A stretch of DNA of 64,000 nucleotides from Candidatus Liptonbacteria bacterium (lineage in GTDB: Bacteria > Patescibacteriota > Minisyncoccia > UBA6257 > 2-01-FULL-56-20), in contig JACQKT010000018.1 in NCBI GenBank assembly GCA_016204355.1, positions 4,987 through 68,986 of the forward strand. Direction: 5' to 3'. A program made the position numbers and the translations under genes. The notes beneath the pieces were generated by a model, which was given only the letters and a program-made list of their open reading frames with translations, was not told the origin of the DNA and did no database searches. Each line of letters begins with the position of its first letter. The stretch's first letter is position 1. Positions 1,697-47,055 of the stretch are shown here, one piece after another.

Positions 1697-3169
1697 CTAC
1701 TTAACAAAATATCTTTTTTTCATACTTTCTTCAATCCCCTCTTCGAATTCGTCTTTTTTGTCCTTGGCTTTTTCGGCAAGCACAGAGAGTTCCTTTTCCT
1801 TCATTTTGCCGAGTTCGCGGACCCTAGATTCCAGATATTCCGCGTCGTTTTTCGCCGGGTCATCAAGAACTTCTTCAAGAAGTACCGAAAGAATATTGCC
1901 GACACGCGGACCGGGTTCGATTCCCAAAATTTTCATTACGCCATCGCCTTTTATTTTCAACATCTTCGGCGAAACGGGGTCCTTTTTCACCTTCTCCATC
2001 ATAAAAAGCAGGTGACGCGTTTTGTAAGGTACGGCCTTGGGCACGCCGGAACCGATTCTGTCCGCCTCTCTCAATTTCAAAAGGTCGGGAATCGTTTCGG
2101 GGCCGACGCGCGCAATGAATCTCCGTACTCCGGCTTCGCTGACCTCGCCGACGTTGTAATAAAACATATGATATCGGACGAGGTGCGCCACTTTTTCTAT
2201 CGTTTCTTTTGAAAAGCGCAGATTTTCCAGGACCGCTACCGTCATTTTGGCGCCAATAACATCGTGCCCATAAAAAGTGGAGCTAGGACCTTCCCCTCTT
2301 TTTGCTTTGGGTTTGCCGAGATCATGAAGAAGCGATGCAAGACGAATCTCAATTGAATAATTTTTTTTAGCGGCATAATCGAGCGATCTAACGTTGTGCT
2401 CGAAAACAGTATAAATATGGTGCTTGTTCTGCGCTACGCCGATTCCCTCGCGGAGTTCCGGCAAAACGTAACGGAGCAAATTCAATTCTTCCAAAAGTAT
2501 TATTCCGCCGGCGGCATTGTCGGATATTATTATCTTTACGAATTCATCGCGTATCCTTTCCTTGGCTATCGTTTCCAAAATGCCGGACAATTTCTCCACG
2601 GCGCGTCTTGTATTGAATTCTACCTGCCATCCCGATTCCGTTGCGAAACGAACCGCCCTCATTAGGCGAAGCGCGTCTTCGTTGAATCTTTCCTCCGGGT
2701 TGCCGACTGTTTTTATAATTCCGTCTTTGACGTCCTTCTGTCCGTCGAAAGGGTCAATTATTTTCTTGCTGGATTCCGACAGGTCCATTGCTATGGCGTT
2801 TACGGTAAAATCGCGGCGGCTTAGGTCTTCTTCGACTGTTTTCGCGAATTTTATTTCGTCGGGATGGCGTTTGTCGGTATATTTCCCCTCTAGTCTGAAA
2901 GTGGTTATTTCCACTATTTTTAATTTTTCGTTTTCCGAATCTGTTTTTACGGCAACAGTGCCGAAATTGTTTTCATAAAGGCTCTCCGGAAAAATATTTT
3001 GTATTTCTTCCGGTTTGGCGTCCGTGGTTATATCCCAGTCTTTCGGTTCTTTCCCTATCAAAATGTCCCTGACGCATCCCCCAACCAAATACGCCTTGAA
3101 GCCCGCCTTTTTCAACTTGGCGCCAACCGCGGATATTTCTTTGGGAATGACTGCTTTCATACTTTCCAT
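1697..3169 (-). CDS. cca: CCA-adding tRNA nucleotidyltransferase (Pol-beta head plus HD domain)
   Basis: GGCVRDILIG...DWDITTD nucleotidyltransferase signature, a downstream HD-domain motif (HDLGKP) and a long charged C-terminal tail. Family call is from established motifs. Confidence 0.8.
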   Translation of the reverse strand: MESMKAVIPKEISAVGAKLKKAGFKAYLVGGCVRDILIGKEPKDWDITTDAKPEEIQNIFPESLYENNFGTVAVKTDSENEKLKIVEITTFRLEGKYTDKRHPDEIKFAKTVEEDLSRRDFTVNAIAMDLSESSKKIIDPFDGQKDVKDGIIKTVGNPEERFNEDALRLMRAVRFATESGWQVEFNTRRAVEKLSGILETIAKERIRDEFVKIIISDNAAGGIILLEELNLLRYVLPELREGIGVAQNKHHIYTVFEHNVRSLDYAAKKNYSIEIRLASLLHDLGKPKAKRGEGPSSTFYGHDVIGAKMTVAVLENLRFSKETIEKVAHLVRYHMFYYNVGEVSEAGVRRFIARVGPETIPDLLKLREADRIGSGVPKAVPYKTRHLLFMMEKVKKDPVSPKMLKIKGDGVMKILGIEPGPRVGNILSVLLEEVLDDPAKNDAEYLESRVRELGKMKEKELSVLAEKAKDKKDEFEEGIEESMKKRYFVK

Positions 3170-33128: not shown

Positions 33129-33404
33129 CTACTTAACGGCTTCCTTGAGAACTTTGCCGGCGCGAAATTTCGGCTTGGTTGAAGCCGCAATCTGTATCGT
33201 TTCGCCGGTTTTCGGGTTTCGACCCTGGCGGGCCGCCCTTTTGGCAACGCGGAAAGTTCCGAAACCGGTTATGGCAACGTCTTCGCCGCGCCCCATTGTT
33301 TTCACGATCGTGTCGAAAACAGCTTCGACTGCGCGGTGCGCGGCGGCTTTTGTTTCAAAACCGCCCGCTTTCATCACTGCCTCGACTAATCCGTCTTTGG
33401 TCAT
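33129..33404 (-). CDS. hup: DNA-binding protein HU
   Basis: 91 aa with the HU/IHF signature (GFGTFRVAKRAARQGRNPKTGE). Confidence 0.9.
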   Translation of the reverse strand: MTKDGLVEAVMKAGGFETKAAAHRAVEAVFDTIVKTMGRGEDVAITGFGTFRVAKRAARQGRNPKTGETIQIAASTKPKFRAGKVLKEAVK

Positions 33405-33584
33405 GAATTAATTTTTGGAAATGTAACCGACCTTTTTACCCTCCCAAATTTTGCCCCGCAAAACTTGGTTGGGTTAAATCTCTGATTGCTGTAAAGTATA
33501 GCAAAATCGGGCTGAAACGCCAATGTGTGCATAGATATAAAGGTTTGGGCGTGGAAGTCTGTCAACTGGCGCCCAAATTTAAAC

Positions 33585-35852
33585 CTAAAACCCTATGCCG
33601 AGCTGCCTTAAAATCGGCTCGAGTTGGGCGTATGAAGGACTGTCTTTTATATTCAGCTTCTTGACGGCTTCTACGAGGTACTCGCGGGCATCATCGAACT
33701 GCCGCGCGTAGAAGTAAGCCACGCCAAGTTTTATCTCTGTCTCCAAATCGGAATGTTCCGACATGTTCCATGCCGTTTTATAAAGTTCGATCGCCTCGGA
33801 AAGATGTCCGGAATCGGCGAAATAACCCGCAATGGTTCTCGGCTCATAAAAATTTTTCCATTCACGGCCCATTTTGATGGCTGTTTTTATTTCTGCGTAG
33901 CCGGTAGCGGGGTCGCCTGTTGCGAAAGCAAGGAGTCCGTAATAAAAATGCGCGTCGGGCACGCCGGGATTATCATCCAAAACCTGCTTCAGTATCGATA
34001 AAGCTCCCGTATAATCACCTTCTATGGTTTTTGTTTTGGCGAGGTAAAAATATGTTTCCTGCCTTTTCGGGCTTATTTCAAGAGCGACTTTCGCTTCGTC
34101 CTCGGCTTTTTTCGTATACGTTTCGGGGTCGATGCTCGCGACCTCGTTGTAAAGATTTACCAAGGCGTAGTGGTTGAATGCGTCAGCGGGATGTTCGTTG
34201 CGAACTTCTTCCATCGCTTTTATCGCCTTAAGCGCATCCTCGTCGGAAACCGTCCCCGGGTAGTTGAAATACTGACTGGCAACCGCTATCGCGTAATCGC
34301 GTTTGAAATTCCAGGAATAAGGGCTCCATGTTGCCGCCGCTTTTTCGAAATCGCCGAGACCGCGGAAGATATCCTGATGCAAAAAATTTTGAAAGCCATT
34401 ATATAGATGATTCGAGGCTTTTAAAGAATTGATGTTTACAAAATAAACGGGGACGAATGCGGCGACAAGGCATACGCCCGCCACAGCCGGCGAAATTTTC
34501 GTCGGTACGGCGTTTTTCTGCGAAATGTTTCTTATCGCCGCTATATCGCCGGATTTTTCTCTGAAAGCGCCGTTGGTCGCCCCCAGAAATAGAAACATCA
34601 TCAAAAGCGGGCCGATTGTTTCAAAAAAGAAGAGTTGACTTACGGCGTATGACGCAAGCATCGCCATGAAAACCGACCGCCAAATCCGATCGCCTTGTCT
34701 GAATGACTCATAGACTGCGGCCGCGAAAAAACCGATAAAAGCGATGAAAAGGATTATTCCGCCGGCGTTTGCGTACTCGAGAAAAAGATTGTGCGGCTTG
34801 TCGAAATTGGTTTCTCTGTAGGAAGATGCGAGCGCCTTCGGGTCGTAATGGCGGTCGTATATCACTATGAAATTCCCCGGCCCCCATCCGAGAATCGGCT
34901 TTTCAAGAAATCCCTCCCAACCGGCCTTGAGCGCCGAAAGACGCGGCGTCAGCGAACTGTCTCCCGAGAGCGACAAAGAACTGAAACGTGAAATCCCGGG
35001 AATTTTGCTCCAAAAAGGATTTTCTTTTGTTACGAAGAATAAAGCCGCAGACAGCACGATAGCTATCATTAAAACAATGTAAACTTTGCGGTTTCCCAAA
35101 AACCCCCGTATCTCTTCAAGTGGTTTTATCGAAAAGATAAACAAAAGCGTCATGATACCGGCCGCAAGTCCCAATATGTCCCCCCTTGTTTGGGCAAAAA
35201 ATACCGCGACCAGAGCATTAAGCGTTCCTGCCGCGCCCGTGAAAAAAAGTTTGATGCGCGCGTTTTTATTTTCTTGGAGCTGGCGTAGAAAAAGATAAAT
35301 CGCGAGGAAAACATGGAGAACAAGATACCCTGCCATGAATGTCGGGTTGCCGAATGTCGCGCCGGGCCTGTCTCCCGGATTTTCTATGAGAAGAAGATTG
35401 GGAACATAAAGCTGCGCGTAGGCTATAAAACCGATGAATATTGAAACGGCAAGGGAACTGTAAAAAATTTTTCGCCATGGCAACTCGTTGAAAAGCGAGG
35501 AAACAATCAGTCCGAATACCGCGAAATGAAGCATTGCAAAAAACCCTATTCCGCGCTCATAGGTCGACCAAAGGCTTCTCCAAAGATCTATGCCGGCAAA
35601 AGAAGTAAGCAGATAAATTCCAAAAAAAACAGCTCCTGCGGAAATCAAAGGGGTGAATTTCGGGCGATAGCGCGGAAAAGAAATCGCAAGCGCAAGCCAC
35701 AAGAAAAAAGCTATTTCAACGAATATCTGAAAAAAAAGCGTTTTGGTGAGCGTGTAAGGATATACGCTGGGGTTGAAATAAAAAAGCGGCGTGCCTATTA
35801 CAATTATAAAAATCAAACCGATAATTGTTTTCAAAAGATTCTTTTCGCTCAT
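33585..35852 (-). CDS. O-antigen ligase-like polytopic membrane protein with C-terminal TPR repeats
   Basis: About 12 TM helices (Wzy_C-like core) followed by a soluble region of about 300 aa with repeated TPR-like helices. Confidence 0.55.
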   Translation of the reverse strand: MSEKNLLKTIIGLIFIIVIGTPLFYFNPSVYPYTLTKTLFFQIFVEIAFFLWLALAISFPRYRPKFTPLISAGAVFFGIYLLTSFAGIDLWRSLWSTYERGIGFFAMLHFAVFGLIVSSLFNELPWRKIFYSSLAVSIFIGFIAYAQLYVPNLLLIENPGDRPGATFGNPTFMAGYLVLHVFLAIYLFLRQLQENKNARIKLFFTGAAGTLNALVAVFFAQTRGDILGLAAGIMTLLFIFSIKPLEEIRGFLGNRKVYIVLMIAIVLSAALFFVTKENPFWSKIPGISRFSSLSLSGDSSLTPRLSALKAGWEGFLEKPILGWGPGNFIVIYDRHYDPKALASSYRETNFDKPHNLFLEYANAGGIILFIAFIGFFAAAVYESFRQGDRIWRSVFMAMLASYAVSQLFFFETIGPLLMMFLFLGATNGAFREKSGDIAAIRNISQKNAVPTKISPAVAGVCLVAAFVPVYFVNINSLKASNHLYNGFQNFLHQDIFRGLGDFEKAAATWSPYSWNFKRDYAIAVASQYFNYPGTVSDEDALKAIKAMEEVRNEHPADAFNHYALVNLYNEVASIDPETYTKKAEDEAKVALEISPKRQETYFYLAKTKTIEGDYTGALSILKQVLDDNPGVPDAHFYYGLLAFATGDPATGYAEIKTAIKMGREWKNFYEPRTIAGYFADSGHLSEAIELYKTAWNMSEHSDLETEIKLGVAYFYARQFDDAREYLVEAVKKLNIKDSPSYAQLEPILRQLGIGF

Positions 35853-36042: not shown

Positions 36043-39000
36043 TTAGGAGCCGGCAGCGTACGAAACGGAGTTGACGGTTATCGGTATCGTGGTCGCCGGA
36101 ACGTTAAGTCCGGTTACACCTCCCGAAACCGCATCTGTCCATATCACGTTGCCTGCAGCGCTAATTGTAGCCGACAAGGTCTGCGACACACCGTTTTGCG
36201 CGGCACCCATGACTCCAGTCTGCGAAGAGTTAATTCGGAGAGTGAAGCTCTTGCTGGAACCGGCGCTGATAGTGTAGTTGTTGAGGTCGAACGACAAACT
36301 GGTCGTCGTGGAAGCCACAGCGTAGTACGAGCGGCCGTTAGCCGAGTCATACAGAGTGACATAACACGTTGTACAAGTGGCGACACTGCTGTTGCCAGTG
36401 CTCGTAGCGTTGAAGAAGTTTGTCGTCGAAGGACCGGAACCGCTGAAGGTAACCGTTATCGATTGGAGCTTCAGAGCGCCGGCGGAATCGGCCGCGAAGT
36501 TCAGGAGACCGATGTCATCGGTCGCCGATTTCGCGCGTCCGGTTGTAACACCGTTGGCAGTGCCAGTAAGCGTGAGTTTTGTTCTCAAGAGTGTCTGGGC
36601 ATTGCCGTTCGGAGACGAAGTAGCGACTGTTGCAGTCGCATTCGACGTCTGGCCGAGCACGGTCACGAGCTCAGCGGCTGTGTCGTTGCTCGGATCACCC
36701 GAGGTGTCGAACTTGAAGGTGTGCGCTTCGTTGTCTATCGCACCGCTCGAGCTGAACGAAGCAACGTCGCCCTTAAGCGTAAGGACAACCGAGTTGGACT
36801 TCGTTATGGTCACTGGGCTCGCAAAGTGGAACGTGTAGGTGTACGTGGTAGACGTACCGTTCACGCCTGCAGAACCGGCGCATCCCAACTGGCTGGCGCC
36901 ATTGTAGAGACAGAGGTTCTGGAAGCCCGTGGAGGTCGAGGTCGCGCTGACCGAGTCGGTCAAGCGCAGGTCGGTTACCTTCACGTCGTCGGCGTTCGAT
37001 GTCTCGGTGACGAGGAACGCGGCGAGGTTGTTGCCGGTTGAACCCATAACGATCTGGTTTGCGGACGGGTTGGAAGAATCGGCCGAAATCGTGATCGCTG
37101 GCTGGCCGGCGATGGCCACGTTCTGACCCGCGGTCGAGGTGCAGGTGACGGACGTGTACGAGGTCGCGCCGCTGCCTGTGCAGCTGCTGAGAGTCGTAGC
37201 TGTCGTCAGAGTACCTGACGCGTTCGAAAGAAGGTCGGCGTAAACGTCAACATACGTCGTGCCGCCGGAAGGAACCGTAAACGGTGCGCCGGAGAACGCG
37301 AATGTGCCGTTGGCACTCAGCGAAGCTTGCGTGCTGCCGAACTGCGTGCTTCCGACCATTACTTTCAGGTTTTGCATCGAGGCGCCGAAGAGAACCTGGA
37401 CCGAAACGTTCGATATCGACACTCCTTCAGCCGATGAGGCCGTCAGGGCGTACGAACCGATTTTCCGGTTGGTCGAATTTGCTGCGTAAGTCGGAGCTCC
37501 GAAAGCCGTGTTCTTGGCCGTGGTTAGCTGACTCGTCGCCAAAGTGAGGGCGGCTCCTGTCGCCGAACCGCTGTTCGCGGTCTGGCTCGAAGTCAAACCC
37601 TGCAAGTTGTTGTTGGTGGACGCTACCAAGCTGGCCGTTACGGTGCTGAAGTCGGCACCCGATTGTACGTCGCCTCTCAAAGACAAGACTCTGGTCGTGT
37701 TGGCCGGAATCGTGTAGTTGATCGGCGAGCTCGAGTTGCCGAAACACTTCGTAGCGGTTGTTGTGGCCGCGGATTCGGTTCCGTCAGTACACGACAAGGT
37801 TGTTGTCAGAGAGCTGATGGTGGAACCGACCTGACCGCCTGCATCATCGTCCAAGTGGACATTCTTGATGTAGCTGTCAAGCGTGTTTCCAGTGCCGCCA
37901 GTGAAAGCGAGCTGGAAGCTCAAGAACTTGACTTTGACCGGTTCGCCTGCCGCGTAGAAATCGAACTTGGCAAGTGTTACTCCGCTCTGACCCTTGGCAA
38001 TGTTGCCGGTCGGGGTGCTGGAGTCCTGAGTAACGGTTATGCTGCCCTGTTTGATGCTCACCTGCGTGCCGACGTTCGAACCTGCGGTTACAGGCGTGTT
38101 GTATTGCGAGTCAACCGCGTAAACGTCGTAGGCGTTCAAAATCTCAAATTGGAAGTTGAACGAAGGCGAACCCATCACGTCGGCGTAAACTTGAACGTTG
38201 TTCGCGCCGGTGTTGACGGTTGCAGGCGAAGCCGACAAATCGAAGTAGGCCGAGCCGTCGGATGCGACCGCGGCGAGCGTTTGTCCTACTTGCGTGCCGT
38301 TAACCATAAGTTTCACGTTCCTGATGTCGGCTTTGTTGGCCGAACCGATAACGGTGAACTTTATGTTCTTCAAGTACGTCTTGCTGTTGGCTCCCGTGAA
38401 AGTGAAAGCTCCCACAAGGTTGTTCTGGGTGCCTGCCGTCACTGAGGTTCCGATAGAAGACGAAGCAACTGTTATGCTCGCGATGGACGGGTTTGAAACC
38501 GTGGTCATCGTGAACGTGTTTCCGTTAACCGGGACTCCCGTTTCCGTTATGGAATTTCCGGAAGCGTCCATTGAAGAAACGCTGTCCGCTGAAGCCACCT
38601 GGAAGGAAACCGTGTTTCCGGCGTTGACGCTCGAAGAGATGTCAACCTGCAGCCAGAGCTCTCTTGTCTGTCCGGCGGCAACGTTAAGGCCTAAGCCCGA
38701 GAACGTGAGAACGCCGTTAGAGAGAGACTGGTATTGCGCGATTACTTTGCCTCCTTCGACAAGGTAAGCGCCGGTAATGTTGTTGTCAGCAACGACTCCG
38801 ACTTTCGTGAATTTAAGATCCGAAACGGTGACGCCGCTGGCTGTTCCAGCCGTAAGGTTTACGGCCAAAATCGAATTTCTTGCCGACCCGGCAATCAGAG
38901 AACCTGCAGCCGGATTGTTGGCAGAAAGCGAAACTTTAAGGCCCGAAGCCGGAGCAGGAACCGTTGTTCCTCCGCCAGTCGTACCTCCCGTGGTTCCGCC

Positions 39001-39438
39001 CATTGAGGCAATCTTGGCCCTTGTTATGGGACCGAAGTACCCCACAGCCGGTGAAACGCCGTTTGCAGCCTGCCATTTGGCAACCGCGGCCTGTGTCAGC
39101 GAACCAAAGTATGTAGTCTCATTGCCCGGCGAACCTGCGCCGCTCGCGGCAACTTGCGCGCCGTTGGCGTTGAGAAACTGCTGAAGAGCCCTTACGTCAT
39201 CTCCTGTCGAACCCACTGTGAGGCTGCGGGTGAAGTTGTATGAAGTAGTGACACCTCCTTGTGCTGAATTAAGCTGGGCCTGTAATTGCTGTATCTGCGC
39301 GAGCAGTGCGGCAATTTGAGCCTGTAAATCGGCGACCGACTGAGCCTGGGCAACTGGAACCAAGAGAAGCGCTCCTGACATCCACACACTGGTGGTGAGA
39401 GTAAGCGCCGCTGATGTTATTTTTTTGCTTGTGCTCAT
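36043..39438 (-). CDS. giant Ser/Thr/Gly/Ala-rich secreted surface protein with N-terminal peptidoglycan-binding domain
   Basis: Signal peptide, a QAQ coiled coil, a PG_binding_1-like block (GSTGDDVRALQQFLNANGA...VAKWQAANGV) and then about 950 aa of low-complexity T/S/G/A-rich predicted beta-repeats. Locally GC-rich. Confidence 0.7.
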   Translation of the reverse strand: MSTSKKITSAALTLTTSVWMSGALLLVPVAQAQSVADLQAQIAALLAQIQQLQAQLNSAQGGVTTSYNFTRSLTVGSTGDDVRALQQFLNANGAQVAASGAGSPGNETTYFGSLTQAAVAKWQAANGVSPAVGYFGPITRAKIASMGGTTGGTTGGGTTVPAPASGLKVSLSANNPAAGSLIAGSARNSILAVNLTAGTASGVTVSDLKFTKVGVVADNNITGAYLVEGGKVIAQYQSLSNGVLTFSGLGLNVAAGQTRELWLQVDISSSVNAGNTVSFQVASADSVSSMDASGNSITETGVPVNGNTFTMTTVSNPSIASITVASSSIGTSVTAGTQNNLVGAFTFTGANSKTYLKNIKFTVIGSANKADIRNVKLMVNGTQVGQTLAAVASDGSAYFDLSASPATVNTGANNVQVYADVMGSPSFNFQFEILNAYDVYAVDSQYNTPVTAGSNVGTQVSIKQGSITVTQDSSTPTGNIAKGQSGVTLAKFDFYAAGEPVKVKFLSFQLAFTGGTGNTLDSYIKNVHLDDDAGGQVGSTISSLTTTLSCTDGTESAATTTATKCFGNSSSPINYTIPANTTRVLSLRGDVQSGADFSTVTASLVASTNNNLQGLTSSQTANSGSATGAALTLATSQLTTAKNTAFGAPTYAANSTNRKIGSYALTASSAEGVSISNVSVQVLFGASMQNLKVMVGSTQFGSTQASLSANGTFAFSGAPFTVPSGGTTYVDVYADLLSNASGTLTTATTLSSCTGSGATSYTSVTCTSTAGQNVAIAGQPAITISADSSNPSANQIVMGSTGNNLAAFLVTETSNADDVKVTDLRLTDSVSATSTSTGFQNLCLYNGASQLGCAGSAGVNGTSTTYTYTFHFASPVTITKSNSVVLTLKGDVASFSSSGAIDNEAHTFKFDTSGDPSNDTAAELVTVLGQTSNATATVATSSPNGNAQTLLRTKLTLTGTANGVTTGRAKSATDDIGLLNFAADSAGALKLQSITVTFSGSGPSTTNFFNATSTGNSSVATCTTCYVTLYDSANGRSYYAVASTTTSLSFDLNNYTISAGSSKSFTLRINSSQTGVMGAAQNGVSQTLSATISAAGNVIWTDAVSGGVTGLNVPATTIPITVNSVSYAAGS

Positions 39439-39458
39439 TTGGTAATTTTTTTTCGACT

Positions 39459-39731
39459 TTATCCTCCCAACTTTTTGGACTTCAAGTAGCGTTTTAGGAC
39501 TCGATTAAGGTAATTTTTGCCCCAGCCGGTTTTAAGAAATTTTTCCCTGGCAAATGCGTCTTGTTGATTAAGAAAAATTTCTGAGTAAATTAGCTTGAGT
39601 GGTATCCTATTTTTTGTTGAGTAAACGCCGCCTGAATTATGCAATCTCAACCTCTTGGTTAAATTATTTGTGCACCCAACATAGTTATGCCCACCAGCCC
39701 CGCTTTTCAAAACGTAAACGAAGTGCGGCAC
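39459..39731 (-). CDS. GIY-YIG nuclease domain protein (90 aa)
   Basis: HFVYVLKSGAGGHNYVGCTNNLTKRLRLHNSGG matches the GIY-...-YVG core. GTG start. Confidence 0.8.
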   Translation of the reverse strand: MPHFVYVLKSGAGGHNYVGCTNNLTKRLRLHNSGGVYSTKNRIPLKLIYSEIFLNQQDAFAREKFLKTGWGKNYLNRVLKRYLKSKKLGG

Positions 39732-39753
39732 GGGTCCAAAAAGTTGGGAGGAT
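39461..39753. repeat. perfect 20-bp inverted repeats bracketing the GIY-YIG ORF
   Basis: ATCCTCCCAACTTTTTGGAC at 39461-39480 (overlapping the last codons and stop) and its exact reverse complement GTCCAAAAAGTTGGGAGGAT at 39734-39753 (3 nt upstream of the GTG start). Confidence 0.6.
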
Positions 39754-39789
39754 TAATTTTAATTTTTTCGTTTATCGACCTAGTTTATA

Positions 39790-40227
39790 GGACGTCGACC
39801 TTTTCTTAATTTATTTTTTTCTGGACCCCATCATTGCTTTTATATCGACCGTCGTCTTCTAGTGAGGTTAGAGACGGAGATTTTAAAAGCCGATGGTTTG
39901 GTATCTAAAAAAATGAAAAACTCGCTTTTGGAGCGAGGCATCATCTGCGCAATGACTTAAAACTTAGGCAATGATTTCAAGGAATCATTGTCATTAGCCA
40001 CAGCACCCCTGCCGATGCAGGGTTGATTCAGCCTCACTCTGAATCAGTGCGTCCCTTTTACGGGAGCGCTGTTTTTATCGTTTTTATACTATACTACAAA
40101 GCCGAAAAGGCGAGTTGTGGATAACTCCGATGCTCGATAAACGAAACCGGAGTCCAACTCCCATCGGACTTGCCTTCCTGTTTTCAGCATATATTACAAC
40201 GGTAACAGCCAAAAAAGGGTTACTTGG
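39790..40227 (-). other. gene-free structured segment, candidate ncRNA or long 3' UTR (unclassified)
   Basis: About 440 bp with no ORF of 60 aa or more in a dense genome. Several 6-8-bp hairpins. A minus-strand intrinsic terminator lies at about 39907-39937. Confidence 0.25.
39907..39937 (-). terminator. intrinsic terminator inside the gene-free segment
   Basis: CTCGCT-tttgg-AGCGAG hairpin followed on the minus strand by UUUUUCAUUUUUUU. Confidence 0.45.
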
Positions 40228-40965
40228 CTAAAAGCTGTTTATGGGCGCTGACGGGGCAGGCAACTCTATTATTCCGCTTTCTTTGGCGGTGAGACGGTAA
40301 ATGCTGTTTTTGCGACTTCCTACTCTTTCAACGGTTCCCTTCAAAATGAGTGACTCGAGATCATAGCGGAGAGTTCTGTCGCTGACTTCGGTAAATACCG
40401 ACTGCAGCTCGTTCAAGCGGCAGTTTTCCATTTCTCTAAGCTTTTCCACTATAGCCAGTTGTCTTGATTCGGATTTATCGGAAATTTTATCGGAAAAAGA
40501 CTTATCGGAAATTTCCGATACAGTTTTTTGGTCAATTTCCGATAAATCTGCCGTTTTCGGAGATGTATTGGCAATCTGCTTCTTATTCGGCAATCCCGAT
40601 TTTGAAAAAACTTTTCCGAGATTCAAATCCGGTAAAATACCCTTTTTCGGCACTGCGCGTATAGCAAGCGTTACATTTTCCGATTCTCTCATCAGAACTT
40701 CCCTGTTTATCGGATTCAGGATACCGCCGTCAACCATGAGCCCGACGAGGCTTATTATCGAACTCGATATAATTCCCGTTCTTTCGTAATCGGAAGTCAA
40801 AACGGAATCGAGCAGAAAAAATGCCTTGCTTTCAAGCAGTCCGGCGATTTCTTTACTTTTTGCCGATGAAGCTATGCTCAATGTGGCATAGGCAAATTCG
40901 TAAGTTTTTTTGTAAAGAAAGTCTTCCTGTATGCTCTTTGTCATCCGAAACATTATTAACGGCAA
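40228..40965 (-). CDS. hypothetical protein with C-terminal winged-helix (DeoR-like) DNA-binding domain
   Basis: C-terminus LAIVEKLREMENCRLNELQSVFTEVSDRTLRYDLESL resembles a DeoR-type HTH. Helical N-terminal domain. Internal low-complexity (I/F)SDKS repeats. Confidence 0.45.
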   Translation of the reverse strand: MPLIMFRMTKSIQEDFLYKKTYEFAYATLSIASSAKSKEIAGLLESKAFFLLDSVLTSDYERTGIISSSIISLVGLMVDGGILNPINREVLMRESENVTLAIRAVPKKGILPDLNLGKVFSKSGLPNKKQIANTSPKTADLSEIDQKTVSEISDKSFSDKISDKSESRQLAIVEKLREMENCRLNELQSVFTEVSDRTLRYDLESLILKGTVERVGSRKNSIYRLTAKESGIIELPAPSAPINSF

Positions 40966-45699: not shown

Positions 45700-47055
45700 T
45701 TATTTTCCATGCGAGGGTATGAGTAATTTTTTAGTTATTTTTAAAGCGCTGTCAATATCCTTTTTGGAAGTCGGCCTGCCAAAAGTGAAACGAATGCTCC
45801 GGCGGGCGCGTTTCTCGGAAAAACCCATCTCTTTTATCACATAAGAGGGTCCCGAAGACCGCGCGGAGCACGCAGATCCTGCCGAAGCCGCGAGACCTGC
45901 CAAATCGAAACTCGTCAACAAATCCTGCGCTTCATAATCCGGAAAATGAACATTCAAAAAATTCGGGAGGGTTTTCCTCGCGCTGCCGTTGCGCTCCGCT
46001 CTCGGATATATTTTTTTCAATTCCTTCCAAAAATAATCTCGCAGTGCCGATGTTCTTTTGCTTTCCGAAACGCGCAGACGGGGAACAATCTCCGCGGCTT
46101 TTGCGAATCCGACGATCAAAGGAATGTTTTCGGTGCCGGACCGGATCCCGAATTCCTGGCCGCCCCCCATTATAATTGGGTTTAAGATGTAGGAATTATG
46201 ATTCATGAGCCCCCTGTTTCTTAATAAATCTTTTTTCTTAAATCCTAATTCGCGCGCATAAAGGGCTCCGGCGCCTTTCGGACCGTAAATTTTGTGAGCG
46301 GATAAAGTCATAAGATCGACTCCCAGCCTGCCTACATCGCAATCGAAAAATTGGAACGCTTGAACGGCATCTGTATGAAAGAGGGGGTAGAAGCTGGAAT
46401 TTGTTTCGGCTTTCCGCTTTTTGAAATCATTAATTATTTTTTTTATTTCGAAAAGCGGCTGTATCGTGCCGATTTCGTTGTTGGCGTACATGACCGACAC
46501 CAAAACTGTCCGCTCATTCAGCGATTCTTCGAGTTTTTTCAAATCGACCAGTCCCTCCTCCGATACCGGAATGAAAGTTACTTCAACTCCGTCTTTTTCC
46601 AGCTCGTGCGCAGTTTCAAGAACCGATTCATGCTCGATAGACGAAACGATGACGCGAAGCGGAAATCGCTTTTTGAAGAAGCTCTCGGAGGTGCGCCGGG
46701 TTTGGTCTCCAAAGGAGCCGGCGCGCCGAGAGCGCAGGTGGGTGCTAGTCGTCGGAGTGAGCAAACCGCCGGTTCCCAAAAAAGCGATTTCCGCCGCTTT
46801 CACCGCTCCCCGCAACGCAAGGTTGTTAGCTTCCGTAGCCGAGCCGGTAAAAACGACTTCACGGAATCCCGCGCCTATCGTTTTTGAAATAGCTTCGCGC
46901 GATTCGTCGAGTGCCCTTATCGCTTCCTGACCGAAATAATGCAGCGAGCCGGCGTTGCCGTATTTTTCGGCAAAGTACGGACGCATCGCTTTTTCCGCTT
47001 CCGGCGCAACCGGAGTAGAAGCGGCGTAATCAAAATAGAGTCTGGCTCTTGGCAT
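45700..47055 (-). CDS. cysteine desulfurase (class V aminotransferase; IscS/NifS-like)
   Basis: SAHKIYGPKGAGALY PLP-lysine motif, SSIEHESVLET and ATEANNLAL blocks. Carries an in-frame insert of about 44 aa between the latter two (see findings). Confidence 0.8.
   Translation of the reverse strand: MPRARLYFDYAASTPVAPEAEKAMRPYFAEKYGNAGSLHYFGQEAIRALDESREAISKTIGAGFREVVFTGSATEANNLALRGAVKAAEIAFLGTGGLLTPTTSTHLRSRRAGSFGDQTRRTSESFFKKRFPLRVIVSSIEHESVLETAHELEKDGVEVTFIPVSEEGLVDLKKLEESLNERTVLVSVMYANNEIGTIQPLFEIKKIINDFKKRKAETNSSFYPLFHTDAVQAFQFFDCDVGRLGVDLMTLSAHKIYGPKGAGALYARELGFKKKDLLRNRGLMNHNSYILNPIIMGGGQEFGIRSGTENIPLIVGFAKAAEIVPRLRVSESKRTSALRDYFWKELKKIYPRAERNGSARKTLPNFLNVHFPDYEAQDLLTSFDLAGLAASAGSACSARSSGPSYVIKEMGFSEKRARRSIRFTFGRPTSKKDIDSALKITKKLLIPSHGK
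46659..46793. repeat. GC-rich palindromic insertion inside the cysteine desulfurase ORF
   Basis: Terminal inverted repeats GCGGAAATCGCTTTTTG / CAAAAAAGCGATTTCCGC enclose about 100 nt holding nested palindromes (GCTCTCGG..CCGAGAGC, GCGCCGG..CCGGCGC, GGTTTG..CAAACC). Confidence 0.5.

Follow-up and report, generated by a model that had tools for sequence, protein, structure and literature searches.

A 64-kb stretch of Candidatus Liptonbacteria DNA (the window) carries a gene for a predicted GIY-YIG nuclease of 90 amino acids that is enclosed by an inverted repeat (IR). The known systems closest to this element are the Ssn nucleases with their flanking hairpin repeats, the repetitive extragenic palindrome (REP)/RAYT units, and the Rickettsia palindromic elements (RPE). 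The last of these were reportedly described by Ogata et al. in 2000. RPE are mentioned in PMC1779305. The Ssn nucleases are single-domain GIY-YIG proteins of ~94 amino acids that cut only single-stranded DNA (ssDNA) beside the hairpin repeats that flank their own genes (Chenal et al. 2025, PMC11893778). Cleavage by Ssn persists when the two halves of the hairpin reside on separate strands, each homologue has its own repeat, and the resemblance of the NTS-ssnA-NTS layout to an insertion sequence (IS) was noted by the authors (PMC11893778). The REP/RAYT units are also known as REPtrons (Nunvar 2010 and Ton-Hoang 2012, as cited in PMC11893778).

The dyad in the window very probably forms the two ends of a selfish palindromic element that occurs in Patescibacteria. 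The element family comprises a form of ~300 bp that bears an open reading frame (ORF) and forms that consist of the hairpin only (39-43 nt), and it is insertion-polymorphic. In the larger form the hairpin repeat is split by the 90-amino acid nuclease ORF, which occupies the loop, begins 0-8 nt inside the left arm, and takes its terminal KKLGG-TAA from the right arm. The gene-less hairpins are scattered over related genomes, in many cases as in-frame insertions of exactly 39 nt within conserved genes. Patescibacteria have tiny genomes (~1 Mb) and few recognized mobile elements. No such element in Patescibacteria was found in full-text literature searches. GIY-YIG proteins are among the genes predicted to have been donated horizontally by Patescibacteria (PMC12455944).

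The window was scanned for the 20-mer ATCCTCCCAACTTTTTGGAC with ≤3 mismatches allowed, and 100 shuffles were used as the null. Exactly two copies were found in the 64 kb, against 0.00 expected, and both are perfect (39461-39480 on the plus strand and 39734-39753 on the minus strand). The arms were extended to 23 nt by a repeat finder, with 96% complementarity (22 of 23 positions, flanks included). The limits of the whole unit in Table 1 include the conserved 4-nt flanks TTAA...TAAA. They agree with the family-wide unit YTYR-CCCTCCCAA.TTTT...AAAA.TTGGGAGGG-YRAR and with the empty-site junctions of orthologues. An earlier description of the locus, the first-pass annotation, had reported a GIY-YIG ORF enclosed by a perfect 20-bp dyad, and the sequence, the repeat finder, and the Pfam search all agree with it. 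The copy at 39461-39480 overlaps the end of the gene as reported, where it provides the last six codons (S K K L G G) and the first base of the TAA stop codon. The other copy had been placed 3 nt upstream of the GTG start codon; the gap is 2 nt (39732-39733).

The 90-amino acid protein was matched to Pfam PF01541 with an E of 3.8e-12 over residues 3-68. No domain besides GIY-YIG was found in it with Pfam, NCBIfam gives nothing, and TIGR01453 is obtained at an E of 0.064, far under its cutoff. The nearest solved relatives are the UPF0213 proteins 1zg2 (E 2e-9) and 1ywl. A second copy of the nuclease gene was not found within the window. The stop codon of the nuclease gene sits 20 nt upstream of the ATG (39438) of an 1131-amino acid ORF on the minus strand, the distance to this giant gene given previously. 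Folded at minimum energy, either as ssDNA or as RNA, the segment 39440-39775 is closed by the 20-bp stem (z -4.2 and -4.5), as had been proposed for the transcript.

Loci retrieved for comparison are labeled with L-numbers (L001, L134, and so forth), and 39 of these loci encode relatives of the nuclease. The protein is identical to a record of a Candidatus Liptonbacteria metagenome-assembled genome (MAG). Relatives that are 55-77% identical occur in Wolfebacteria, Paceibacterota, and other Patescibacteria. The family members are 83-108 amino acids long, and their alignment keeps Y6, Y17, G19, R27, H31, and E63. Nearly all relatives terminate in ..SKKLGG despite linkers of varying length, and two ORFs read through SKKLGG; this C-terminus is conserved because the 3' arm is conserved as DNA. 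A dyad of the same type brackets the homologous ORF in 33 of the 39 loci, with stems of 14-29 bp. In the bracketed loci the arm (A)CCCTCCCAACTTTTTGGAN ends 0-8 nt (rarely more) ahead of the start codon, and the complement of the 5' arm either forms the final codons or lies just past the stop. A search for further copies of the 20-mer and of the IR-flanked unit had been suggested. The window holds no third exact 20-mer, and the IR-bracketed nuclease does recur in the related loci.

The outer half of the arm is conserved, and the inner half is locus-specific (GGAC, AGAC, GAAA, ATACCA, GTCCTTA, GAGAA, GCGC, and others). The variable inner half remains complementary within each locus, in L001 at the price of a K to N change in the protein. 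Covariation was evaluated in an ungapped alignment of 26 loci, with 500 shuffles and slid registers as controls. In the 22-bp helix, changes on both sides were found in 15 of 25 pairs (76 cells). The covariation score is 0.324, versus 0.160 for the shuffles, none of which (0/500) reach 0.324, and at most 0.109 for the slid registers. The nuclease ORF is under purifying selection, with dN values of 0.12-0.29 and a dN/dS of ~0.10-0.14 where computable. In most pairwise comparisons the ORF has reached saturation at synonymous sites, yet the sequence of the arms is retained.

The site of insertion upstream of the giant gene was compared with six orthologous loci (L134-L139), which were reached via homologues of the upstream winged-helix protein (40228..40965). 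These loci have in common the gene order ClpB, a 237-amino acid gene, NTP_transferase, the winged-helix-turn-helix (wHTH) gene, a spacer, and the giant protein, whose orthologues carry PF01471 PG_binding_1. In all six, the interval from the wHTH gene to the giant gene lacks a GIY-YIG gene. The site is empty in L136 (a Liptonbacteria MAG) and L138, which read ..GATAAACTTAGAAAAAAATTA^TAGTCGAAAAAAATAAAATACAAATGAGC.., and is equally empty in L137, L139, and L135. In L134 a gene-less (solo) hairpin stands at precisely the same place, ..AAATTCA[ CCCTCCAAAATTTTCGCAAGGCGAAAACTTGGGAGGG ]TAAAGTCGAAAAATAAAAATACCAAATGAGC.., and in the window the site is filled as ..AAAATTAA[TCCTCCC..nuclease ORF..GGGAGGA]TAAAGTCGAAAAAAAATTACCAAATGAGC... 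The same site is also filled in L004, L005, ten Wolfebacteria contigs (L040-49), and probably L001. The junction between cassette and host DNA is clean to within ~3 nt of the repeat boundary when compared with the empty orthologues (L136-L139); whether loci lacking the cassette join cleanly at the IR boundary had been named as a check by the first-pass annotation. The native leader of the giant gene in the window aligns with the leaders of the empty L136 and L138 (TAGTCGAAAAAAATAAAATACAAATG) and of the solo-bearing L134.

The same cassette is found in other contexts, which vary by subclade. It lies directly upstream of glyS (L022, L025, L029), nusG (L010, L039), a DnaQ-like exonuclease gene (L007, L038), and the gene for the transketolase C-subunit, tktB (L006, L011, L018, L021). 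Elsewhere it adjoins tRNA and RNase P RNA genes. About 5 of the 40 nuclease copies are decayed: L016 and L034 contain stop codons, L038 is frameshifted, and L037 and L039 are fragments. L135 (2551-3005) carries a nuclease gene that belongs to a different subfamily and is not gene-called in the source, 1.2 kb upstream of the empty giant-gene site. The dyad that encloses it is another one, ATGCCCCGTAAGAAA / TTTCTTACGGGGTAT, with the arms 287 nt apart; the repeat of this dyad also forms a complete hairpin at 2853-2880 and recurs once more at 2988-3005. The subfamily of the nuclease and the type of repeat are thus linked.

When the fetched loci were scanned for arm-like sequences, short and complete hairpins with the arm sequence of the cassette emerged, for example TTTACCCTCCCAAATTTTGCCAGGCAAAACTTAGGAGGGTGAA in L040. 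The solo copies are 35-43 nt long, and the loops of the gene-less hairpins range from 3-5 nt up to 33-70 nt. The solo flanks are conserved as YTYR...YRAR, and the repeat unit is therefore 43 nt. A scan of metagenome contigs with the exact pattern CCCTCCCAAATTTTG-N3-9-CAAAAYTTGGGAGGG provided 82 stretches, and the solo-bearing metagenome loci contain ~100 hairpins in 477 kb. Both the solo hairpin and the nuclease family are absent from 2.9 million viral contigs, and the element is therefore chromosomal. Only weak matches, to YazA-like GIY-YIG genes, were obtained from a plasmid collection. The window itself holds one solo copy, which is intergenic between a 755-amino acid gene (33585..35852, minus strand) and a 91-amino acid gene (33129..33404, minus strand) and folds as a hairpin on both strands (z -3.8 and -4.1). 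The sequence AAAAATTCGGGAGGGT at 45957-45972 was considered as a third copy or half-site and rejected as a chance look-alike; it encodes the native cysteine-desulfurase motif KTLPNFLNV in the ORF 45700..47055 (minus strand).

Two copies with cassette-type arms and loops of 33-70 nt, L015:2885 and L006:4244, resemble internal deletions. The arms of the former are identical to those of cassettes (..TTTTTGGAC / GTCCAAAAA..) and its loop is 33 nt. The loop of the latter is weakly similar to the C-terminus of the nuclease (score 41, versus 27 +/- 3.8 for the null). As a separate observation, L015:2860-3320 contains a tandem trio of the hairpin with the 33-nt loop, a nuclease cassette, and a tight hairpin, with CAAG(C/T)CC spacers. 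This array is reminiscent of clustered REP/BIME (bacterial interspersed mosaic element) or NTS arrays.

Approximately 35 of ~60 distinct solo copies fall within long ORFs, and the solos occur in both orientations relative to the host genes. Depending on the frame, the peptides added are PSQILxxKTWEG, PSQVLxxKIWEG (opposite orientation), HPPKFCxAKLGRA, and TLP(N/S)FxxQNLGGQ. The consensus of the hairpin core is free of stop codons in all six frames, provided that the 5-nt loop makes none. The flank TRA is a stop codon only in the frame of the nuclease ORF (KKLGG-TAA), and copies that are read in this frame by a host gene have CRA. The host genes encode class II aminoacyl-tRNA synthetases (AspRS, LysRS), ThrRS, a Clp-type AAA ATPase, a GTPase, YbeY, UvrB, and MsrA. 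Relative to solved structures, the UvrB and LysRS segments contain exactly 13 extra residues and the MsrA segment ~15. Among 70 scorable UvrB homologues (≤83% identical), 69 are without the insert and one has a decayed copy.

The UvrB insertion was parsed at the DNA level. The empty sequence in L132 is ..CCTATT^AGGAATCAG.., and the filled sequence in L096 is ..CCAATT[ CACCCTCCCAAATTTTGCAATGCAAAACTTGGGAGGGCA ]AGAAATCAG... In short form, CCTATT^AGGAAT corresponds to CCAATT[39 nt]AGAAAT, an insertion of 39 nt at TT^AG. The other insertion junctions are ambiguous with respect to target duplication. The same UvrB gene in L096 has a second in-frame palindromic insert of 72 nt (2636-2712), with CCCGCCC-type arms CTCGCCCGCCCAAGTTTTT / AAAAATTTGGGCGGG. 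It is read as LARPSF...KKNLGG and is absent from L132 (..ATTAAT^CAGGTA..). At L132:1400-1500 uvrB is split into ORFs 422-1480 and 1501-2415, and the split point holds two other small palindromes, CCAGCACC..GGTGCTGG and CCCGCACC..GGTGCGGG. This split may reflect another family of intragenic hairpins, a frameshift, or an assembly error.

Table 1. Coordinates of the palindromic element, the solo copy, and adjoining features in the window, with the variant types of the arm.
Feature	Position	Strand	Description
Whole element	39458..39756	-	299 bp; order in gene orientation: TTAA flank, left arm, GIY-YIG ORF, right arm, TAAA flank
Left (5') terminal arm, gene orientation	39734..39756	-	TTAATCCTCCCAACTTTTTGGAC; ends 2 nt before GTG (39732-39733 between)
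Right (3') terminal arm	39458..39480	-	GTCCAAAAAGTTGGGAGGATAAA; supplies final six codons SKKLGG and TAA stop
GIY-YIG nuclease ORF	39459..39731	-	90 amino acids, GTG start, single domain; occupies palindrome loop
Solo palindrome copy	33435..33477	.	TTTACCCTCCCAAATTTTGCCCCGCAAAACTTGGTTGGGTTAA; slightly decayed, two mismatches in 3' half
Host gene downstream	36043..39438	-	1131-amino acid secreted/surface protein; context, outside element
Native A-rich leader of giant gene	39439..39457	-	AAGTCGAAAAAAAATTACCAA; intact downstream of insertion
Arm variant types			CCCTCCC, CCCGCCC, GCCCCGTAAGAAA

The element may be compared with Ssn on several points. Both proteins are single-domain GIY-YIG proteins of ~90-94 amino acids with no DNA-binding domain, so that the protein in the window is of Ssn size (~90-150 amino acids). 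Both genes are flanked by dispersed hairpin repeat sequence, and in both systems the repeats are subfamily-specific (L135 here). In contrast to Ssn, each flank here is half of a hairpin, and the halves pair across the gene, which is placed in the loop. The repeat sequence is distinct from that of Ssn, and the host belongs to the Patescibacteria. Copies of the present repeat are often in frame within coding genes, whereas only 2% of the NTS of N. meningitidis are intragenic. The protein is not established as a member of the Ssn family (CDD cd10448); the apparent likeness lies in the size of the protein and in flanking repeats of altered topology. A selfish unit of the nuclease/hairpin kind is found here in a new phylum, with a new topology and with in-frame intragenic derivatives.

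In the REP/RAYT units, too, a nuclease- or transposase-like gene lies between inverted copies of a short palindrome, and this repeat is dispersed elsewhere in the genome as well. However, RAYT is an HUH/Y1 enzyme of the IS200/IS605 type and the protein here is GIY-YIG only by Pfam, REPs are extragenic, and each RAYT flank is a complete REP hairpin. RPE are similar in that short palindromes lie in frame in conserved ORFs and add a peptide without destroying the gene; this holds for the solos of related genomes, and the solo of the window is intergenic. By description, RPE are ~100-150 bp long, alphaproteobacterial, and without a known enzyme gene, whereas the solo copies here are 39 nt and an ORF-bearing form exists. 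Transposons with terminal inverted repeats and their miniature derivatives are matched by termini that are common to ORF-bearing and gene-less copies and by clean presence/absence polymorphism (UvrB, empty in L132 and filled in L096, and the giant-gene site). The hairpin dependence and the lack of a target duplication in one parsed insertion are as in the "peel and paste" elements of the IS200/IS605 type. Unlike these transposons, the element contains no known prokaryotic transposase family, only the GIY-YIG domain. Known autonomous IS elements measure roughly 0.6-0.7 kb and more, and the ORF-bearing unit here is 299 bp. Homing endonucleases such as I-TevI and Seg have in common with the element a GIY-YIG catalytic domain, selfish behavior, and insertion between or next to conserved genes. 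These enzymes differ in having C-terminal DNA-binding domains and at least 200 amino acids, and they are mostly borne by phages or introns and lack terminal repeats; the protein here has 90 amino acids and the TIGR01453 value given above, and its family is absent from the viral contigs.

A mechanism may be proposed for the propagation of the element. The arms would pair as a hairpin in ssDNA, either during replication or during DNA uptake. By analogy with Ssn (PMC11893778), the nuclease would recognize the arm-arm hairpin and cut at the base of the stem. Host repair or ligation would then complete copying, or excision and insertion, such that the element is propagated, and the same cleavage could mobilize hairpin-only copies in trans. 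The hairpin-only copies may persist in genes, having a length that is a multiple of three and being open in all six frames. In the window the element landed 20 nt upstream of the giant surface-protein gene, within its leader, with the A-rich initiation region of that gene left intact. The chance that the GIY-YIG nuclease drives the palindromic element, as the analogy suggests, is put at about even. The statement as a whole, in which the dyad forms the termini of a selfish palindromic element that is driven by the nuclease, is considered probable. The first-pass annotation had offered a minimal selfish cassette as one of two explanations, and this is borne out in substance by the clean empty orthologues, the solo hairpin at L134, the same dyad in unrelated contexts (glyS, tktB, nusG, and tRNA genes), and the gene-less polymorphic insertions.

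Several results weigh against a nuclease-driven selfish element. The biochemical activity of the 90-amino acid protein is a prediction. GIY-YIG nucleases only cut and are not known to catalyze strand transfer; transposition would therefore need host functions. The published Ssn repeat motif (SRM), written as the pattern HGTCWYN(0-2)YYVSBRHN(0-5)WNVSBRGN(0-2)RNCYNB, gave 0 matches within ≤500 nt on either side of 41 cassettes (49 kb), and the same regular expression recovers the NTS control. The nuclease gene was found in just 2 of 80 solo-bearing metagenome loci, counted over the retrieved DNA only, and the linkage is loose. The filled giant-gene site spans lineages whose nucleases are only 63-79% identical, and the nuclease-bearing form at this site is therefore either old or specific to the site. 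The compared loci gave no sign that the form with the ORF has moved recently. The UvrB insertion of L096, the sole insertion parsed to the nucleotide, has no target-site duplication.

In addition, certain duplications are not accounted for by the model. At the tktB (L006, L011, L018, L021) and glyS (L022, L025, L029) loci, a second copy of the first 18-29 codons of the downstream gene, together with ~25 nt of its leader, lies upstream of the left arm. This copy forms an open mini-ORF that continues into the arm ((S/L)PSQLF..) and either terminates at the start of the nuclease gene or overlaps it. In L018, for example, the upstream sequence is MPANPQMHLVENLLDLKSIEQTPTRNGYG|SPSQLFR* and the downstream sequence is MPINPRAQLVENILDLRSIEQKPTRDGYGQGL. 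These duplications may represent a long target duplication, a replacement 5' end that is borne by the element, or a by-product of repair. At the DNA level, direct repeats that flank cassettes are significant only at the glyS loci, where they are part of the 5'-end duplication, and between flanking tRNAs.

A bolder proposal is that the element is an autonomous DNA transposon of a new class, possibly the smallest known (~300 bp), in which a 90-amino acid GIY-YIG nuclease in the loop of its own terminal hairpin mobilizes both itself and the 39-nt copies via ssDNA, with the copies colonizing essential genes of Patescibacteria in frame. This proposal is tentative and somewhat doubtful. If it is true that the nuclease mobilizes the element, the result would be a new and exceptionally small type of transposon, the missing enzyme partner for intragenic palindromes of the RPE type, and the first bacterial GIY-YIG "transposase". 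The element explains short insertions in proteins of Patescibacteria (or candidate phyla radiation, CPR) that may confound annotation, alignments, and phylogenomics. It provides a testable enzyme candidate for the spread of RPE-type intragenic palindromes, a question that has been open since 2000. With it, Ssn-like nuclease/hairpin pairs are also extended to another phylum, to a repeat that is new, and to a new topology with the gene inside the hairpin. Each nuclease/hairpin pair is a ready-made combination of enzyme and site for ssDNA tools.

The hairpin could instead be an independent repeat, of host or selfish origin, into which the gene has homed. A free-standing homing-like GIY-YIG ORF, with the center of the palindrome as its target, would have been copied into the loop of a solo hairpin, and the solos would be targets rather than deletion derivatives. 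The occupation of one site by a solo in L134 and, in the window, by a hairpin with the ORF is consistent with this, as is the great excess of solos over ORF-bearing copies, and a palindromic target would fit a symmetric nuclease. However, arms of ~20 bp are too short for ordinary recombination-dependent homing between non-allelic sites, and the single-domain protein is without the DNA-binding domains of the known GIY-YIG homing enzymes. The apparent internal deletions L015:2885 and L006:4244, the latter with a loop weakly like the nuclease C-terminus, are also at odds with solos that are only targets. Homing into a pre-existing palindrome is judged unlikely.

Domestication of the system by the host has a rather small probability. 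An Ssn-type enzyme that is no longer mobile would cut incoming or replicating ssDNA at marked sites and modulate recombination, as proposed for Neisseria, with its gene set between two half-sites. Patescibacteria are believed to depend on DNA uptake, and the strong purifying selection on the ORF, the conservation of its position in several lineages, and the Ssn precedent (PMC11893778) would all be expected of such a system. The pseudogenes among the 40 copies, the variable presence of the cassette at orthologous sites, and the different contexts in different subclades would not, and the hairpins within essential genes look parasitic rather than functional.

The second explanation offered by the first-pass annotation is highly improbable. 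In it, the mRNA of the nuclease is closed by a long-range RNA stem, which would control how it is translated or how stable it is, with a 5' arm that resembles an anti-Shine-Dalgarno (anti-SD) sequence and an SD-like 3' arm. The RNA fold does close on the stem, and the nuclease start codon, which lies 0-8 nt from the stem, is without an SD of its own. Some loci have an upstream ORF that extends across the 5' arm and terminates where the nuclease begins. However, the non-Watson-Crick stem cells of all loci amount to 28 G:T, 23 A:C, and 26 others. This spectrum of mismatches is that of unselected transitions and transversions, with no wobble tolerance on the sense strand. The compensations at inner positions are fully Watson-Crick, and one-sided intermediates are almost absent. 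Since the mismatches have no G-U bias, the constraint is on DNA and not on mRNA. Judged from the aligned sequences, the arms are under both sequence and pairing constraint at the DNA level, equal on both strands. The palindrome also occurs without the ORF, in both orientations, and inside other genes. Only tRNAs reach the Rfam gathering thresholds in the window, and a permissive scan of 39300-40300 yielded chance-level matches only.

The proposed SD/anti-SD role of the arms was rejected on three grounds. SD-like motifs precede 8 of 52 crudely called gene starts, versus 6 of 52 in a control window, and the organism appears to use SD sequences little. The distance from GGGAGGA to the ATG of the giant gene is 23 nt. 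The A-rich leader of the giant gene is the same in the empty orthologues, which have no GGAGG. The idea that translation of an upstream ORF is generally coupled to the start of the nuclease was also rejected, as such coupling is found at only some loci (tktB, glyS, and several operon contexts) and is absent in the window and many others. It had been argued beforehand that absence of the 20-mer elsewhere, together with the same arrangement in distant relatives, would indicate a gene-specific regulatory structure rather than mobility. Both were found, in that the window has no other exact 20-mer and the arrangement is conserved in distant relatives, yet the conclusion of gene-specific regulation is wrong.

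An invertible DNA switch of the fimS or Bacteroides type, with the 20-bp repeats as recombinase sites for phase variation of the giant surface-protein gene, fits the geometry (~250 bp between inverted repeats of ~20 bp directly upstream of the gene) but has next to no probability, given the single orientation in all filled orthologous loci (window, L004, L005, and the 10 Wolfebacteria contigs), the same dyad around the nuclease beside glyS, tktB, nusG, and tRNA genes, and the absence of a recombinase from the conserved neighborhood.

Two further features were observed in the region upstream of the element in the window. Upstream of the giant gene, both the window (39770-39860) and the spacers of L134-L139 contain the conserved boxes TAGGTCGATAAAC and AAAGGTCGACGTCC, whether or not the element is present. 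The adjacent winged-helix protein may bind these boxes, or they may belong to a promoter. The AGGTCG motif was rejected as a part of the element and assigned to the host regulatory region; it has no window-wide enrichment and is conserved in the empty orthologues. A candidate small RNA gene lies at 39916-40124 on the minus strand and is conserved in all of the orthologous loci L134-L139; no Rfam match was obtained for it. It starts with GAGTTATCCACA (DnaA-box-like TTATCCACA), followed after ~20 nt by the -10-like TAGTATAGTATA. The body of the candidate is variable (150-330 nt) with a conserved hairpin, GATTCAGAGTGAGGCTGAATC, and ends in the terminator GCCTCGCT..AGCGAGTTTTT (window 39937-39921).

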